Source: Octopus vulgaris (taxonomy: Eukaryota). Taken from it: a stretch of DNA of 64,000 nt. This document shows, piece after piece, positions 2,887 through 57,649 of the stretch. Location: the NCBI GenBank assembly GCA_951406725.2, contig OX597820.1, positions 104,470,001 to 104,534,000 of the forward strand, written 5' to 3'. Position 1 is the stretch's first letter. Each line of letters starts with the position of its first letter. A program made the translations under genes and the position numbers. The notes beneath the pieces were generated by a model. The model was not told the DNA's origin, made no database searches, and saw only the letters and a program-made list of their open reading frames with translations.

Positions 2887-3900
2887 GTTTCTTTATTAGC
2901 CACACAGGGCTGCTCACAGATGGGTCAAATTACAAGGTAGAGCTTTTCTTTTGGGGGGTGAAAAAAAAAGTGGCGTAGATTTTCGATCAAAAGGGATCGT
3001 AAAAGGGGGGGGGGTGAAGAAACAAAAGAAGAGAAAAAGAAAAAAGAAGAAAAAGAAAAAAAGGGGGAAGAGGAAAAAAACGATCAATAGGGATCGTGTA
3101 TCACAGTGTCATGATGTACGGTGTAAAGGGGGAAGCAGATAAGATTTATCCGTGGGAAGAAAAACCTACGAAAAAGACCACGGTAACCTCGGTCAATATT
3201 GTTATATGTTACCACATTTGTTTGCAAGTGGGTAAGCCTCTGTTTTTAATTTCTGGGTTCATGGGATTATGCTCAAGGTGGCTTCGTCATTCATACGTGC
3301 CATCCTTGCTACATTCACCCATCTTTTTTTAAAATATTCGCTAGACAAAACTTGCCTCTCTACTCTCACTTTCCTTTTCAAGTGATACTTGAAGAAGTTG
3401 ATGAGAGATTGACCGGAGAAGAAAGTGTTTGTCTCCAATCCTTTCAGACGCGTCCACCAGATACATTCTTTCGCCATAGCCACAAGGATGATGAAAATAG
3501 CTCTTCCTTCCCGTTTGAAGGAAGGAGGCGTGACAATATTGACGATAGACTCAGCTGATAAACCGACTCGTCCCACACGTGACAGCAGTTGTTCGACTTA
3601 AGCCCACAGGTCGGAAATTGTTGGACACTGCACGATTGCGTGCAGAACGGTTTCGTCGCTCTGACCGCATCTCGGGCAGGTCGGCCCCGTGTTTCTCGAG
3701 CTGTGTCTGTAGAGCTTATCCCGAACGGGTAGCGCTTCTCGGTAGCACTGCCAGGCCAGGGATCTCTGGAAGTTGTCCATGAGCCCGAAAGTCGTCCCGA
3801 ACAGGCGAGTCAGGTATTCCTCGTCGACGTCCAGGTTCGCCCCGAGCTCGTCGTCGTACCTCCCCTCTACTAATCCCCTATAGAATGCTTGGTTTGTGTT
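2887..3900 (-). mobile_element. L1/Tx1-like LINE, 5'-truncated copy 2
   Basis: Collinear with copy 1 and has the same 3' end. Encodes CPRCGQSDETVLHAIVQCP (CCHC zinc knuckle). Confidence 0.9.
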
Positions 3901-9213: not shown

Positions 9214-9620
9214 ACTCTTTTACTCATTTCAGTCATTTGACTGCGGCCATGCTGGAGCACCGCCTTTTAGTCAACCAAATCGACCACAGGACTTATTGTT
9301 TGGAAAACTAGTACTTATCCTATCGGTCTATTTTGCCGAAACGCTAAGTTACGGGGACGTAAACACACCAGCATCAGTTGTCAAGCGATGTTGGGGGGAC
9401 AAACACAGACACACAAACATACTCACTCATATATATATATATATATATACATATATACGACGAGCTTCTTTCAGTTTCCGTCTACCAAATCCACTCACAA
9501 GGCTTTGGTCGGCGCAAGACTATAGTAGAAGACACTCGCCCAAGGTGCCATGCAGTGGGACTGAACCTAGAACCATGTAGTTGGTAAGCAAGCTACTTAC
9601 CACACTGCCACTCCTGCGCC
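9213..9620 (-). mobile_element. SINE family A, full length
   Basis: tRNA-like head, CORE-like ccttgggc-agtgtc segment, internal (TA)n and a gtaaaaga-repeat tail. Confidence 0.92.
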
Positions 9621-9870
9621 TAAGTTGTCCTGGAATGCTTGATGTAGTCAAAACAGAAATATGTACAAACGAAATATACTGAAGAAAATAAAAAGAATTT
9701 TATGTTTGTAAAGTCGCGTAGTAATATATTGAATTCTATTCATCGAACTGCTAAAATACAGATTTCAATAAAATTACTTCGCAACTGGAATCGATGCTGA
9801 TTTCCTTATTTTCAAACAATTTCACCGAACGCGGTGCTTCTGTATAGTCATTGTGTAATTACTAAAGACA

Positions 9871-10283
9871 GGCGCAGGAGTGGTTGTGTAGTAAGTAGCT
9901 TGCTTACGAACCACATGGTTCCGGGTTCAGTCCCACTGCGTGGCACCTTGGGCAAGTGTCTTCTACTATAGCCTTGGACCGACCAAAGCCTTGTGAGTGG
10001 ATTTGGTAGACGGAAACTGAAAGAAGCCCGTCGTATATATGTATATGTATATATATATATATGTATGTGAGTGAGTATGTTTGTGTGTCTGTGTTTGTCC
10101 TCCCAACATCGCTTGGCAACCGATGCTGGCGTGTTTACGTCCCCGTAACTTAGCGGTTCGGCAAAATAGACCGATCGAATAAGTACTAGGCTTCCAAAGA
10201 ATAAGTCCTGGGGTCGATTTGCTCGACAAAAGGCGGTGCTCCAACATGGCCACAGTCAAATGATTGAAAAAAGTAAAAGAGTA
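9871..10283 (+). mobile_element. SINE family A, full length
   Basis: ggcgcaggagtgg...ggttcagtcccactgcgtggcaccttgggcaagtgtc...catggccacagtcaaatga...gtaaaagag. Confidence 0.93.
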
Positions 10284-19127: not shown

Positions 19128-19715
19128 TTTGTGTATGTGTTCTTTATCTTTGTATATGTATTCCTTATCCTTGTGCATGTGTTCCTTATGTTCGTGTATG
19201 TGTTCCTGATCCTTGTGTATGCGTTCCGTATGTTTTTGTATGTGTTCCTTATCCTTGTGTATATGTTCCTTATTGTGTATGTGTTTTTTATGTTTCTGTG
19301 CATGTGTTCCTTATGCTCGTGTATGTGTTCCTTATGTTTGTGTATGTGTTCCTTATGCTTATGTTTGCACTATTTATCTTTGTGTATGTGTTCTTTATCT
19401 TTGCGCATTTGTTCCTTATCCTTTTGTATGTGTTCCTTATGTTTGTGTATGTGTTCCTTATGCTTCCGTATATTTTTGTATGTGTCCCTTACCCTTGTGT
19501 TAATGTGTTTCTCATCCTTATGTGTATGTGTTCCTTATGTTTGTGTGTATATGTTCCTTATTGTGTATATGTTTCTTACGCTCGTGTATGTTCCTTTTAC
19601 ATATATTTATATTCTTTATATTTGTGAATGTTTTCTTTATATTTGTGTACATGTTTCTTATCTTTGTATATCTGTTCCTTACCTTTGTGTATGTGTTCTT
19701 TATCCCTGTGTATAT
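19128..19715. repeat. Degenerate ~21-bp minisatellite (consensus approx. tgtgtatgtgttccttat(g/c)(t/c)t)
   Basis: Periodic recurrence; the ORFs show a 7-aa period (FVYVFLM / RNTYTRI). Confidence 0.9.
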
Positions 19716-19796
19716 GGTCCTTGTGACAATCACTCTCACAAGCTTCCTTTGGCAAGGAAAGACATGCATTTTGCTTTTTTCTGGTGTCTCCGTTGA

Positions 19797-22134: not shown

Positions 22135-22609
22135 GGGATGTGATTTCAGGGAGACTTGGCTAATACTTCCATCAAATTGAATGGCCATACATATATAGGT
22201 AGATACACCCTTGTCAACTTGTGTATGTATGTGTGTGTGGTCAGGTCTGTAAATGTCTGAGGCGATAATGTTTTGTTACTAAAGCGACACCAATTCGGTT
22301 TTTGCTTTTCAGTCTTTTCATTATCTATCGGCAAGAAACCACCTTACAAAGTGATTTGGACTCAAGGGAGGAGAGACAAACTATTTGGAATAAAAAATTA
22401 TATTTATTACCAATAATGTTTTAAGTTCTATTTATTCGTGTCTGTAATTACTCAAACCAATACATACATACATGCATATGTACGTAAGTATATATATATA
22501 TGTATGTATGTATGTATTTATGTATGTATTTATTTATGTATGTATGTATGTATGTATGTATGTATGTACATATATATATATATATATATGTACATACATA
22601 CATACATAC

Positions 22610-22648
<39 letters not shown>

Positions 22649-22649
<1 letters not shown>

Positions 22650-22952
22650 TAGCAGTATCGCCCGGCGTTGCTCGAATTTGTAAGGGAAATAACTATATAA
22701 GCATTTTTAGAGAGTTACTTCCCTTATATAACCCGAGCAGAAATCATTAATAATGCGGAAAAATGATGGTAAATTTTTTTTTAAATCGTAGACTCATCGT
22801 AGACTCGCGCTAATACCCAGAAGGGCTCGATATGAATGACGACTATAAGATACCCGCTTTTAGTTAAACTGCACCGCAAAATGTGGGAGTAGTTAGGAAT
22901 CTAAATCGGAGGAGACAGAGTCTCACACACACAACTTCAATTTTATATATAA

Positions 22953-22955
<3 letters not shown>
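22649..22955 (-). mobile_element. Non-autonomous Helitron
   Basis: Minus strand reads A|TCTTTATATATAAAA ... cgagcaacgccgggcgatactgCTAG|T: TC start, subterminal GC-rich hairpin, CTAG end, A|T target, no TSD. Confidence 0.85.
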
Positions 22956-23003
<48 letters not shown>

Positions 23004-23053
23004 CGGCATCACCGCAATACATGTAAATATATACGAACAAGAGAGTAAAGATT

Positions 23054-23574
23054 AACATAATATGGCTGTCCTGGTTAAGACGAGTTGCTACTGTTATTTA
23101 GCTCATGGAAGCATCGTCTCCAGTGGTTATACGACACACTAATCTGCGTCGCAAATAGTCTTTACTCTAGAGTACTGTTACTGAATGTCTCTCGTTCAGA
23201 GATTTATAAATAATAATTTTCTATTTATTAGATCAGTGATTGTGTGTCACTTTGAAAAGTATATATTTCGAACAAGAGTTTAGTGGCGCCATCTCTAACC
23301 GAGCAGTTATTCTGTGCTGATGAAGAGAAATAACCCTGAAATCATTGCTACGCAGATATAGTTTTGAACTGAGTGGGGACGTTAAACTCCCTTGTTCGAA
23401 AATATAAGGACGCAGATAATGTGTCGTATTGCCAGCTGGAGACGATGTTTCCTGGGGTTAAATAACAGCAACAATCGTCGTAACCAGGACTACCATATTA
23501 TGTTGGAAAATGATCTTTACTCTAGAGTACTGTTACTGAATCTCTCGTTCAGAAATTTAGAAATAATAATTTTT
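23054..23574 (+). mobile_element. Penelope-like non-coding element (inverted plus direct terminal duplications)
   Basis: Inverted repeat 23054-23150 / 23409-23504, direct repeat 23159-23220 / 23514-23574, and an internal hammerhead motif. Confidence 0.7.
23311..23356 (+). ncRNA. Type I hammerhead ribozyme motif (slightly degenerate)
   Basis: TCTGTG-CTGATGA-AGAG(AAATAA)CCCT-GAAA-TCATTGC-TA^CGCAGA. Stem I has 6 bp; stems II and III each have one mismatch. Confidence 0.7.
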
Positions 23575-23629
<55 letters not shown>

Positions 23630-23632
23630 ATG

Positions 23633-23713
<81 letters not shown>

Positions 23714-24152
23714 GATTATTAGAAGACAGCTTCTCCTGGTCACGTGAATGTAACACTATATTGCTGCGTTTGTCATCAATTATTGCTGGACGTCATCGAC
23801 ACAAATCAATATGAAATGTCCGAGACTAATCCATATCAGATCATAAGTATTTTATGAACGGCAAATTTCCAGTGACTATTGAGGAGATGGTAAGAGGGAG
23901 CGGAGCAGAGTTCCCAGTGGAACAGGTGGGGAGTGTGGTTGATACAATGAAATGGGGATAATGTGGTTGTTGCTGTTATTGTTGGCGCTGGTGGTGGTAG
24001 TGGTGGTGTTGTTATATAGCCCCAGGTCAGCCCTAGTTAAGCAGACCTATGAGCGGACACGTATGAACATCTAGAGACAGACGGGCGGACGAACGGACAG
24101 CCAGACAAACAGACAGGCTGATAGATAGACAGACAGACAGACAGGTAGATAG

Positions 24153-30363: not shown

Positions 30364-30591
30364 GGCGAGCTGGCAGAGACGTTAGCTCGCCGGGCGAAAT
30401 ACGTAGCCGTATTTCGTCTGCCGTTACGTTCTGAGTTCAAATTCCGCCGGGGTCGACTTTGCCTTTCATCCTTTCGGGGTCGATTAAATAAGTACCAGTT
30501 ACGCACTGGGGTCGATATAATCGACTTTATCCGTTTGTCTGTCCTTGTTTGTCCTCTCTGTGTTTAGCCCCTTGTGGGTAGTAAAGAAATA
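30364..30591 (+). mobile_element. SINE family B, tail type 1, full length
   Basis: Near-consensus copy with CpGs intact. Confidence 0.93.
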
Positions 30592-30611
30592 GATACATAC
30601 ATACGCGCACG

Positions 30612-30711: not shown

Positions 30712-30941
30712 TCAAAGTATGCAGTATTATAGATCCATTATAGCCTGATCTTACTAATCGGTTTCGTGTAAGATATTAGGTAATCTAATAACAGTGTTCG
30801 TCATAGAGAATTCTACTCTCTAGTCAATGCAGGCTGACTCTGACGGGTGCAGTTATTAGATAATTGGTTAATTCCTAATATCTTGCACAAAAATAATTGG
30901 TAAGATCGGTTCTAATGAGCCCATAATACTGTATACTTTGA
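30712..30941. mobile_element. Imperfect ~230-bp foldback (MITE-like)
   Basis: Left arm tcaaagtatgcagtattat...gatcttactaat...gtgtaagatattagg...atctaataac is mirrored by gttattagat...cctaatatcttgcac...attggtaagatc...ataatactgtatactttga. Confidence 0.75.
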
Positions 30942-41462: not shown

Positions 41463-41903
41463 GGATCTTTTCGGTTTGAACGGCAGTTTTTTCTAGCGGT
41501 GTCATATGAAATTGTCACCCATAATTATGACCCTAGAATCAATCTATTGCATTTCAATCTGTTTTAAGGTTAGGGTTAGTTAGGGTTAGGGTTAGGGTTA
41601 GAGGTGGGGGGAAGGGTATCTTTTTTTCTTCAGAAATGTAAATAAACCCAATCTGTTTCTTAAGCGAGGGACATATTCATACGGCACAGAATGGTTTTTT
41701 TACCTCAATGGATGTCATTGATTGGTTGAAATTGCAGAAATTGAAGAAAAACAACAACAAATGTCTTACAAACCATAGAAGTTTCTCAATAAAGCCAAGA
41801 GAAAAAGATGTTTTATAAACACATTCTACCAGTATACGAAGTTTAAAATTTTTTAGTTACCTAGAAATTATGTTAAAAACTGCCGTTCAAACCGAAAAGA
41901 TCC
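41463..41903 (+). mobile_element. TTAGGG-containing MITE, complete copy
   Basis: Both TIRs and several TTAGGG units; no TSD recognisable. Confidence 0.92.
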
Positions 41904-45616: not shown

Positions 45617-45681
<65 letters not shown>

Positions 45682-45682
<1 letters not shown>

Positions 45683-45807
45683 TTTATTTAAAGCGGCAGA
45701 AAATTCAACAAAACCTGTTACTCTAAGTTTCCCGTTGCCGTTCATGAACGGCAACGGGAAACTCAGAGTAACAGGTTTTGTTGAATTTTCTGCTGCTTTA
45801 AATAAAG
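45682..45807. repeat. 126-bp spacer-less palindrome (63-bp arms, 2 mismatches)
   Basis: Centre at ttca|tgaa (45744/45745); arms compared by eye. Confidence 0.95.
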
Positions 45808-45875
45808 CATATTACTCTACCACTGGTATTTGAGTACTCTGTTTCCACCTTGTTTCACATTTATGTGTTTACTCC

Positions 45876-45952
<77 letters not shown>

Positions 45953-46130
45953 GTGTGTGTATGTATGTATGTATGTATACATATATACATATATACATAG
46001 ATAGATATATACATATACAGAATGAAGAGAAAATGGAGAGGTAATTAATATAATTATTAATTAATAACCTTCAAAGGTAATAATTATTAAAATTATAAAT
46101 TAGGGTATCTACGAGATACAATCATGCTGA

Positions 46131-46443
46131 AAATAGCAGCCATGATCTGACTCTAAAACCACCTTAATTTGAACTGGCCATGATGCATACGTGCATATAT
46201 ATGTGGGTATACGTTCGTATATGTAAGTATTCGTATGCTGTGCTTTTATATATATATATTTATGTTTCTCTTCTGTGTGTATTCTACTGACGAGGCAAAG
46301 CATTACTAAATGCTAGGTCAGAAATCCGAGATCTAGAATTATCCGGTAATTTTTTACTAGTTTCATCTTGTCTCTCTGTTTTATCTCCGTGTTGATATAT
46401 GGACAATTAAGGTGGTTTTAGAGTCAGATCATGGCTGCTATTT
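46131..46443 (+). mobile_element. Non-coding element with perfect 39-bp inverted repeats enclosing a hammerhead
   Basis: aaatagcagccatgatctgactctaaaaccaccttaatt (46131-46169) and its reverse complement (46405-46443). Confidence 0.75.
46281..46339 (+). ncRNA. Type I hammerhead ribozyme motif
   Basis: ATTCTA-CTGACGA-GGC(AA)AGCATT(ACTA)AATGCT(AG)GTC(A)-GAAA-TC(CGA)GA-TC^TAGAAT. Predicted cleavage is after C46333. Confidence 0.8.
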
Positions 46444-46543
46444 ACATCAACCCCAGTGTTCAACTGGTCCTTATTTTATCAACCCCGAAAGGATGAAAGG
46501 TAAAGTTAATCCTGTAGTTGCCTAGAAAGCACACGCACGCGCG

Positions 46544-50962: not shown

Positions 50963-51651
50963 TTTTGCTATGCCGAAAACGGGTGGTGTACGTATTCTTT
51001 ATGTCCGCCCCAAAAAGAACGTTCCTTAAGAGTTGTTACAGAAAGACACGTTGGTGCGGCTGCAAGGTGGGGCACAAAGCTTTGCCGCCGCATTGCGTGT
51101 GTGCTCAGCCGGTTGCTTGTAAGCAAAACTTTCCGCAACTGTCGATTTACAAAAGGTACACACACGGTGCACTGGAGAGAGAGAGACAGAGAGAGAGAGA
51201 AAGAGAGAGAGAGAGAGGATTAATGTAGAGAAAAGCAGACATCTCCGTACCCCACTCTCAGTTTTTTTTCACACATCCTCTTCTCTGCAAAAAATGTATA
51301 ACTGTTCTCTTTAGTAAAGCAGTAGACATGCAGAGGGAAAGACAGAGGTGGGATCGATATAAATGCGTGTGTATGCACACGCGCGCACACACACATATAA
51401 GAGAGATGAAAGCAATTTCATTCAAACATCGCTCCAACACAGATATGCTCTCGCTCTGTCTGTCTCTCTCTCTCTCTCACCGTTTACTTTATCATTCATT
51501 CTCTTTCTATCGAGAGCACATTTTCTATTTCGCGTTCTGTATCGACTCATGTATTCTGTTAGCATATTTATATATAAATAAAAACCTACAACCCGAACCC
51601 CACCCATCCATATATATATATGTGTGTGTGTTTATATATGTGTTATATATA

Positions 51652-51858
51652 CATACATAAAACTGTTTATATATACGTGTGTGTATAATACACACACACA
51701 TATATATAGGCATGCTTATATATCAGCACATATATGTATATCTATAACTATATATATATATACATAAAACTGTTTATATATACGTGTGTATAATACACAC
51801 ACATATATATAGGCATGCTTATATATTAGCACATATATGTATATCTATAACTATATAC
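51652..51858. repeat. Tandem duplication of a ~100-bp unit
   Basis: atacataaaactgtttatatatacgtg...ggcatgcttatatat.agcacatatatgtatatctataacta occurs twice. Confidence 0.9.
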
Positions 51859-52899
51859 ATATATCCATTAACGGTCAAAGGCATCCACAGTCGTTACTCA
51901 GAATTTCTTGACTGTTAAAAGTACTCCACAAAACGTGAGCACTCGTCCGCGCGCGCACACACACATAACAGTGAGTGTAGCATTGTAATCGATTGCATTA
52001 GAAAACAGACGACCGACACATTCTCTTTAACCGACCTGTTGAGTTGCTGCTGTCACTGCTGCTGCTGTTAATAAATTTTACCTGCTCGTGTCTCAGAGAA
52101 CTTCATACTATCTTAGTTTTGTTAGCCGACCCTGTTCCCTTTCTCTTTTTCTACCTCAGCAACAGATACGAAGTCAGGGAAGACAGCCTTAGTTCCTTTC
52201 CCTAGAAACAAGCATGAGAGTCCCTTAAACTCCCGCCGTTACTTAGTAAATGAAAGAGAGAAGGCGGAAACTATGAAAAACGGGGACAAGTCAGGTCGTC
52301 ACTGTGGTTATGATAGCAAGGTGTAGTAACAGCAGCAGTGCTGGATATATTGGCTTGCTGCTCAGTTGTTAGTTTAGTTTCTTTCTTCACTTGTAAATCA
52401 GCCATCAAAGATATAGGTTGTGTTTTATTAATATTATTATTATTTTAAGCACGAAGTAATAATTAGACGGCTGATTTTAAATTATGGTTATAAAACACTG
52501 ATATAATGAACAGTTTAACGAAACTTTTCATGAGTGCCCTATAGAGTTTTTAGTTCGGTTAGAACCTCAATATAAAACAGAGGGAATGGACTGAAAATAA
52601 GTTGGGGCTTTTCCCATACCATTTAATACTATCCTGAAGCTTTACAAGGAAATCATTTTTATACATTTCACGTGTGGTAAAAGAAAGAAAACAAAAACCA
52701 ACAGAAAAATATGCTTTCCATTATTAATTGTTAAAACGATATTTTAGTTCAAGGAATTAACATTAAGGATTTCTGTATAACAACCTGTAGCAGAGAGAAC
52801 AGGATTAGGCCAAACTTCTAACGTTTTATTGGCCAAAACTTGGAATACATACAAAACTATGATAGTATCTAACGAACACTATTTGAGTCGTCAATTAAA

Positions 52900-56205: not shown

Positions 56206-56597
56206 GATGGACACATTGGATAATGTAGTCAGAGATGGGGGAGAGATCCCCTTCATTCAGGACTCCAGGCTAACTTGTTGCTAAATAAAGCAACAATAAC
56301 AATAATTGTAGTGGCGTTTTCTTACGTAAGTACTAGTCCAGCTAAAGCAGCCACAGCGAGATAAGTTGCTTCTTTGTTATTACTCCTCCACATTGCATGT
56401 CATTTTTTTCATTGGCTTTGTGTTGACATGACTAAATATAGACTGTCATTTCAAATAATAATTTCCTGAGGATATATTTGAAAATTACGGACATTGACCC
56501 TGCAATAGATATTTTTAAAAAGATAATCGGATTGTTGTTTTCCAATCGAACATTTGATTACATGTGGATGTGAAATGAGTGAATCAATACAGAATCG

Positions 56598-57400
56598 GGA
56601 TCTTTTCCTTTTGATCGGCACTTTGTAACATAATTTCTAGATAACTAAAAAGTTTTAAACTTCGTATATTGGTAGAATGTGTTTATAAAACATCTTTTTC
56701 TCTTGGCTTTATTGAGAAAATTCTATAGTTTGTAAGATATTTCGTCTGAAATTACTTGCATTTCGGCAATTTTAACCAATCACTAGCGTCCATTTAGGTA
56801 AATAACATTCTGTACCGTATGAATATGTCCCTCCTTTAAGAAACAGATTGGGTTTATTTACATTTGTGAAGAAAAAAGATACCCTTCCCCCACCCCTAAC
56901 CCTAACTAACCCTAAATCTAAAATAGATTGAAATGCAATAGATCGATACTAGGGTTATAATTATAGGTGACAATTTCATTCGACACCGTTACGGAAAATG
57001 GGATTTTTTTCTAGCAGTGTCAAATGAAAATGTCACCCATAATTATGGCCCTAGTATCGTTCTATTGCATTTCAGTCTATTTTAGTTTTAGGGTTAGTTA
57101 GGGGTTGGGGAAGGGTATCTTTTTTTCTTCATAAATGTAAATAAACCCAATCTGTTTCTTAAAGGAGGAACATATTCATTATGCACAGAATGTTATTTAC
57201 CTAAATGGACGCTAGTGATTGGTTAAAATTGCCGAAATGCAAGTAATTTCAGACGAAATATCTTACAAACTATAGAATTTTGTCAATAAAGCCAAGAGAA
57301 AATGATGTTTTATAAACACATTCTACTAGTATACGAAGTTTAAAACTTTTTAGTTACCTAGAAATTATGTTACAAAGTGCCGTTCAAAAGGAAAAGATCC
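56598..57400. mobile_element. Palindromic head-to-head dimer of the TTAGGG MITE with a perfect 8-bp TSD
   Basis: Arms of about 400 bp; cagaatcg at 56590-56597 and 57401-57408. Confidence 0.93.
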
Positions 57401-57649
57401 CAGAATCGTGGGGGTAGTAGAGGTGGTTGCCAATACCTATCAGAAAGCATCTTTCGTAAGAGTAAAATGAAAGGCAATCCTCTATTTATAATCTCAAATT
57501 GAAAGTGGAAAATTAACGAACGAAAATTAACATTGGCATTGTTACCTTGGAAACATTGAAATTTTGACCTAAAAGCGTGTTGCAGAATCGTAATCAACAT
57601 ATGAAGGTGTGTGTCCAGGTGGTTAGGGTATTGCACTCACGATCGCAAG

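Follow-up and report, generated by a model that had tools for sequence, protein, structure and literature searches.

Architecture of the repeat locus

Within the window (the whole 64-kb stretch of DNA that was analyzed), positions 23042 to 23575 hold a composite repeat of ~530 bases with the order of parts A′-B-X-HHR-C-A-B, in which HHR is a hammerhead motif (Table 1). Positions 23054–23150 were identified as an inverted copy of A with 82 of 98 alignment columns identical, 13 substitutions, and three gaps; BLAST recovered the pair within the 64-kb window with an E value of 9e-22 (9.9e-20 with simple repeats masked). The inverted segment of ~97 bp reported in a preliminary description of the locus is thereby confirmed, but that description missed the extension of the arm to 23042, where beyond a 7-nt gap an 11-nt exact match links 23042–23052 to 23513–23523. 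The two B copies form a direct repeat with 63 of 70 identical columns and a spacing of 355 bp (353 bp after a 2-nt indel); a direct terminal repeat of ~60 bp had been described correctly here, except that it starts ~6 nt further left.

Table 1. Parts of the composite repeat and adjoining segments (positions refer to the window)
Feature	Positions	Strand	Remarks
Piece of 39 nt between the upstream (TA)n run and A′	23003–23041		right end similar to X in direct and to C in inverted orientation
A′, inverted arm	23042–23150	−	tail-less copy of A, extended by 11 nt from the start of the B motif region
B1, upstream direct-repeat copy (motif and likely tail)	23153–23222	+	63/70 columns with B2
CTCT..GAGYACTST motif inside 12-bp palindrome (23163–23174)	23165–23178	+	by-eye likeness to Hydra-clade consensi
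AT/TG-rich stretch after B1	23221–23247	+	similar to the (TA)n(TG)n sequence that follows B2
X, predicted 5′ rod arm	23260–23295	+	pairs with C
Type I hammerhead motif	23311–23356	+	core letters intact, helices II and III mismatched
C, predicted 3′ rod arm	23371–23406	+	pairs with X
A, forward copy of the inverted arm	23409–23504	+	BLAST and alignment
B2, terminal copy	23508–23575	+	motif 23520–23533; the following 41 nt, likely the tail, reach the (TA)n(TG)n run

Substitutions amounted to 13 of 95 positions between A and A′ and to 5 of 68 between B1 and B2, together 18 of 163 aligned positions. The two divergences did not differ significantly (Fisher p = 0.31); separate insertion ages for the two pairs were therefore unsupported, and the values are compatible with a single old event. 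A start of the inverted arm at the hammerhead cut site was ruled out, as its inner end scored 28 against A and 17 against the 3′ strand of the hammerhead.

The 3′ end of the element abuts a (TA)n(TG)n run, and the 5′ end lies either at 23003, beside a (TA)n run, or at 23042. Other than TA runs, no target-site duplication of at least 6 nt was found at the flanks. At the end of the segment 23003–23046, 17 of 20 nt agree with C read in inverted and with X read in direct orientation (p ~0.004, 2,000 shuffles), and this piece is perhaps a template-switch product. A further short repeat of 9 nt (23350–23358 and 23410–23418, direct, 60 bp apart) places a repetition of the 3′ helix I strand of the hammerhead at the start of A, which could compete for this helix.

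No ORF was found at the locus: the longest stop-free frame comprised 74 codons and the longest ATG-initiated ORF 52. A Pfam search of 150 frames of the window (149 of the 160 listed plus 23386–23574; 11 overlapping frames in dispersed repeats were dropped) gave no PLE (Penelope-like) reverse transcriptase and no GIY-YIG domain, the only matches being a zf-RVT fragment (1899–2267) and five weak ones. The 74-codon minus-strand frame yielded no candidates among proteins of 40–128 aa. A match of a 63-codon plus-strand frame to P0001, an Ig V-set repeat protein (E 2e-4), was weak and taken as chance. The layout had been described as PLE-type without an ORF, and it agrees indeed with the published layout, which combines an inverted pLTR with a partial tandem and a tail on one side, and to which the hammerhead and the (TA)n 3′ flank are added.

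The hammerhead motif and the predicted rod

The core letters of the motif are CTGATGA (23317–23323), GAAA (23338–23341), and TA (23349–23350), as in the CUGANGA/GAAA/UH consensus, and cleavage is predicted after A23350. Helix I has six of six pairs, one of them G·U, and is predicted to continue past a bulge. Helix II has three of four pairs, with A-U followed by G-C at its base and a mismatch A23326·C23335, and helix III, one substitution short of a palindrome, carries a T23342·C23348 mismatch at 15.2–16.2, beside the core. The hammerhead had been described with an intact core, which is true of the core letters, and the 6-pair helix I is likewise complete; the motif as a whole is not intact, given the A·C and T·C mismatches of helices II and III, nor is it matched by an Rfam hit. 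A single hammerhead is present, in the unduplicated middle of the locus; whether it lies inside the pLTR depends on where the unit is cut.

A hammerhead descriptor, drawn up after the motif had been seen, was matched in 5 of 20,000 dinucleotide shuffles of 23043–23575, and in the window it found two matches versus 0.023 per shuffled 64-kb window (300 shuffles). The bare core pattern was not above chance (19 overlapping matches in the window, a number reached by 9 of 100 shuffles). With a stricter descriptor demanding four uninterrupted helix II pairs, no match was obtained in the window, the motif at 23311–23356 included. Rfam gave no gathering-level match in the window and no hammerhead at E ≤ 10 in 22600–24000 or 23230–23420. 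The catalytic fold was calculated at +2.6 kcal/mol versus −8.1 kcal/mol for an alternative structure in which the core is paired with helix III; this comparison is only suggestive because energy models handle hammerhead motifs poorly. Pairs invading the core were predicted at probabilities of 0.78–0.88. The hammerhead is mutated and likely no longer active.

The segments X and C pair with each other in a predicted rod of ~147 nt (23260–23406) that carries the hammerhead at its tip, a feature missed earlier. The local score of X against the reverse complement of C was equalled in none of 20,000 shuffles. Folding of 23255–23410 gave a z value of −2.9 (1 of 200 shuffles). The plus strand had the more stable fold (−41.1 versus −34.7 for the minus strand). 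For the circular 355-nt unit, z values of −2.4 for the plus strand (2 of 150 shuffles) and −0.6 for the minus strand (33 of 150) were determined. This unit, with a GC content of 37%, was 64% paired, mostly owing to one rod. Much of its fold signal is due to this pairing of X with C, a structure that might equally occur in a 3′ UTR, and in one calculation part of it came from the palindromes in B.

A second hammerhead-like motif is located at 46281–46339, with a core, a 6-pair helix I, a longer interrupted helix II, and a short helix III. It sits within a 45-bp inverted repeat (46125–46169 and 46405–46449) and resembles the first motif in the core only. Rfam showed no hammerhead at E ≤ 10 in 46220–46400.

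End motif, flanks, and search for further copies

The 12-bp palindrome in B has ends that resemble by eye the CTCT-hairpin-GAGCACT(C/G)T motif of three of the six Hydra consensi in File S7 of PMC8557442; a fourth of these consensi holds a variant, and by eye the motif is absent from those of Hydra-1_Obim and Hydra-1_Amil. The pattern used for searching was widened to fit B, so matches within B are not independent. At the locus, the motif follows the hammerhead by 163 nt, versus roughly 30–40 nt (by eye) in the Hydra consensi of that source. The sole independent match in the window was at 45815–45840, with 0.05 expected per shuffled window; a looser pattern was weaker (three matches, equalled in 2 of 100 shuffles).

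This independent match belongs to a segment (45681–45880) consisting of a head-to-head palindrome with 68-bp arms (94%), followed by the CTCT..GAGYACTST motif with an inner hairpin and 37 nt, with (TA)n on both sides. It is likely a fragment of a PLE from another family, made up of an inverted arm and a tail. Although the two elements are unrelated, their end geometry is the same: the inverted arm stops at the motif (just before it in the 45.7-kb element, within it in the 23-kb element), from which 37 nt versus 41 nt (in the 23-kb element) lead to (TA)n.

Downstream of B1, a stretch of 27 nt is similar to the (TA)n(TG)n flank of B2, with a score reached by 22 of 20,000 shuffles and by 20 of the 16,395 unmasked 27-mers of the window. 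This likeness, weak and noticed post hoc, would fit a template that continued from B into X and base-paired with the target. Such target pairing is not favored by PMC11167929, in which the RT start was found to lack homology to the DNA that is cut.

The sequence of the window contains no N and is of animal type, rich in AT, microsatellites, and dispersed repeats. Close to the locus, an element of ~300 bp (22648–22955) lies between TA runs; it has a short internal inverted repeat, occurs once in the window, and resembles a non-autonomous element of Helitron/HINE type. A LINE-like 3′ fragment with a zf-RVT domain occupies the minus strand at 1690–2892 and 3238–3900, including a near-duplicate of 670 bp (92%); its frame 2170–2892 is 65% identical to an Argonauta hians protein, the sole organism-named entry among 32 matches, and this one entry points to an octopod as the likely host; the dispersed repeats also seem similar to those of Octopus. 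Three abundant dispersed repeat families represented by 30364–30595, 9230–9402, and 41604–41903 gave 17, 8, and 12 BLAST segments in the 64 kb, respectively, partly as inverted pairs (e.g., 9230–9621 with 9870–10266, and 56597–57401). A degenerate palindrome of ~230 bp (67%) without flanking TA runs was found at 30712–30941, and a MITE-like 71-bp inverted repeat (93%) encloses 427 bp at 355–425 and 853–923. Minisatellites are present at 19128–19722 (21-bp unit, ~29 copies) and 51644–51868 (103-bp unit, ~2 copies).

No second copy of the element was found in the 64-kb window by blastn or nhmmer, and none in phages. The sole match in prokaryotic genome contigs, 25 aa from Streptomyces, was attributed to chance because the DNA matches over only 9 nt. 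An 11-nt piece of the hammerhead gave no exact match, which line breaks could hide, in the text of the PMC8557442 supplement with its Naiad, Chlamys, and Hydra consensi. Among titles and abstract beginnings of the literature on octopus or cephalopod hammerheads, retrozymes, and Penelope, which included few subscription papers, no paper on a cephalopod retrozyme was found.

Proposed origin of the locus

The standard PLE layout comprises an inverted 5′-truncated copy, a partial tandem, and a one-sided tail of 30–40 bp (PMC8557442; PMC3846280). As described in PMC11167929, the two internal start sites of the RT delimit the tail; in vitro, RNA that has not been cut serves as the main template, and insertion does not depend on hammerhead cleavage. 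PLE hammerheads are weak and dimer-dependent according to PMC4209133, in which more-than-unit copying from circles was already proposed. With EN+ PLE insertions the locus shares an inverted arm without the terminal extension, a direct terminal repeat, a hammerhead, and what may be an AT-rich target without a clear target-site duplication. It differs by the missing RT/GIY-YIG ORF, by a hammerhead outside the duplicated part, and by an extension of about 41–52 nt versus the usual 30–40 nt; moreover, a canonical inverted arm copies its neighbor, whereas A′ adjoins B but mirrors A.

A likeness to the Hydra clade would lie in the (TA)n target, the motif ends (by eye, three of six consensi), and the near-palindromic helix III with a 1-nt loop; many hammerheads of this clade have a palindromic helix III with a 1-nt loop (File S2 of PMC8557442). 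On the other hand, the motif at the locus has no inner hairpin and is 163 nt away from the hammerhead, Hydra-1_Obim gave no by-eye match and has a different hammerhead sequence, and the clade is defined by the protein motifs RWK, DKT, and CxCX5C, whereas the locus has no coding sequence. Insertion at (TA)n and a hammerhead near the 3′ end are consistent with the Hydra clade but not exclusive to it. Non-autonomous Chlamys elements such as MRC1 (PMC8557442) are likewise protein-less PLE derivatives with pLTRs and head-to-tail insertions, but these are green algal, and most Chlamys elements are without canonical hammerheads.

Metazoan retrozymes are made of tandem units of 150–450 bp (350–390 bp in mussel) with a GC content below 50% and are expressed as circles, and PLEs are their candidate mobilizers (PMC7229834). 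Non-LTR retrozymes form multi-copy families whose highly self-paired monomers are expressed in linear and circular form. Solo ("monomer") copies related in sequence to pLTRs are reported as common, and an active retrozyme is defined by two consecutive HHR-bearing units (bioRxiv 10.64898/2026.07.22.740005); 235 hammerhead-1 loci are annotated in the giant squid (PMC6962438). With a non-coding unit of 355 bp and a GC content of 0.37, the locus falls within the size and composition range of metazoan non-LTR retrozymes, with which it may also share the self-paired fold, besides the proposed mobilization by PLEs and a type I hammerhead with a 6-bp helix I and a 4-bp helix II (here three of four paired). 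In contrast to at least two consecutive HHR-bearing units, it has one hammerhead, a mismatched one, and ~1.5 units with an inverted 5′ arm instead of an array.

We favor, with moderate confidence, one old insertion of a protein-less PLE derivative of ~355 nt (of non-LTR-retrozyme type) that was copied in trans next to a (TA)n run. Such an insertion is probably inactive and an ordinary kind of animal repeat. All enzymatic steps of the following mechanism are taken over from the cited PLE work. A master locus would produce multimeric or circular RNA of the unit B-X-HHR-C-A. A PLE protein, perhaps of the Hydra clade, would nick AT-rich DNA, and reverse transcription would start internally at the end of B. 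Copying would then extend beyond one unit, reading through a hammerhead that is uncut or re-ligated and re-entering B. A second, inverted cDNA would start ~50 nt upstream at the CTCT motif, which would give an inverted arm without the tail. This cDNA might directly have taken the place of the forward A; alternatively, a head-to-head palindrome might have lost its forward A by a later deletion. The copy would subsequently have decayed to the 18 substitutions in 163 aligned positions that now separate the duplicates. The 355-nt unit had earlier been interpreted as the monomer released by ribozyme cleavage, and as such it is putative; release needs two hammerheads, so the locus with its single one cannot itself release a monomer.

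The published PLE layout, the 355-bp period and GC content in the retrozyme range, the near-palindromic helix III, the plus-strand fold, and the shared end geometry argue for a trans-copied derivative, as do the reported commonness of solo retrozyme copies and, weakly, the stretch after B1. Against it stand the single hammerhead, the extent of ~1.5 units, the unfavorable catalytic fold, and the lack of a second copy in the 64 kb, of an Rfam match, and of a target-site duplication. Further points against it are two departures from the canonical PLE arrangement, in which the hammerhead is part of the pLTR, namely the position of A′ beside B and the hammerhead in the unduplicated middle, as well as the distance of 163 nt from the hammerhead to the motif and the missing by-eye match to Hydra-1_Obim.

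A locally ORF-less full PLE fits nearly as well as the trans-copied derivative. With somewhat lower probability, the locus could be what is left of an autonomous PLE of Hydra, Neptune, or a similar type; the 355-bp spacing would then be peculiar to this one site, and no RNA of 355 nt would ever have existed. Either internal deletion removed the ORF from a pLTR-ORF-pLTR insertion, or a 5′-truncated 3′ end (X-HHR-C-A-B) became linked to an inverted arm and to a tail (B) that had been primed separately. Most PLE insertions are 5′-truncated and form partial tandems (PMC8557442), and many copies were disabled through microhomology-mediated deletions (PMC3846280). From the cut site to the end of the element there are 225 nt, to be compared with hammerheads about 90–210 nt from the 3′ end in the Hydra consensi (PMC8557442, Files S1 and S2); the ~80 nt upstream of the hammerhead are too few to show an ORF, and the absence of a second copy within the window is in line with a remnant. 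Its cost is an extra event, and it does not predict the flank-like stretch after B1 or the better-than-shuffle fold of the unit, which are both weak signals.

We consider it improbable that the structure arose by local DNA rearrangement of an older sequence, i.e., an inversion plus a short duplication with template switching among microsatellites, the hammerhead being a passenger or a chance motif. Microsatellites and other repeats are indeed frequent in the window (masking covered 10,180 of 64,000 bases, and 15 inverted-repeat rows were listed), Rfam shows no hammerhead, and the piece 23003–23046 hints at template switching, but the descriptor result (5/20,000), the position of the hammerhead at the tip of the rod (0/20,000), and the end geometry in common with the 45.7-kb element speak against it. 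Very improbable is an active, self-cleaving copy producing a 355-nt monomer or circle: the core letters and helix I are intact, and dimerization or assistance by proteins can render PLE hammerheads functional (PMC4209133; PMC11167929), yet there is a single hammerhead with mismatches at 15.2–16.2 and in helix II and with core-invading pairs (0.78–0.88), and only one of nine Xenopus retrozyme dimers was reported to be cleaved in vitro (bioRxiv 10.64898/2026.07.22.740005).

For the preferred trans-copied derivative, the PLE layout and the proposal of more-than-unit copying were known before; the rod, the extension of the arm to 23042, the motif at the arm end, and the abutment to (TA)n are new. 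By itself, the locus is a single decayed repeat out of many; the same 64 kb also contain another hammerhead-like motif and another PLE-like end. A bolder suggestion, which we put forward tentatively and regard as unlikely, is that it represents the first described cephalopod non-LTR retrozyme family, mobilized by Hydra-clade PLEs, with the motif shared with Hydra elements marking the RT start. Should the B-X junction be family-wide, the locus would be of modest importance: a retrozyme insertion with the inverted arm and tail of PLEs would be a footprint of mobilization, and the end motif in common could be considered a candidate for a recognition signal. If the suggestion is true, one insertion would record more-than-unit reverse transcription round a 355-nt circle together with the inverted arm and tail of PLEs. 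Mobilization of animal retrozymes by PLEs has so far been argued, in the sources cited, from co-occurrence and pLTR similarity; the locus would then provide direct genomic evidence of PLE machinery moving retrozymes, and CTCT..GAG(C/T)ACT would make a cis-signal testable.
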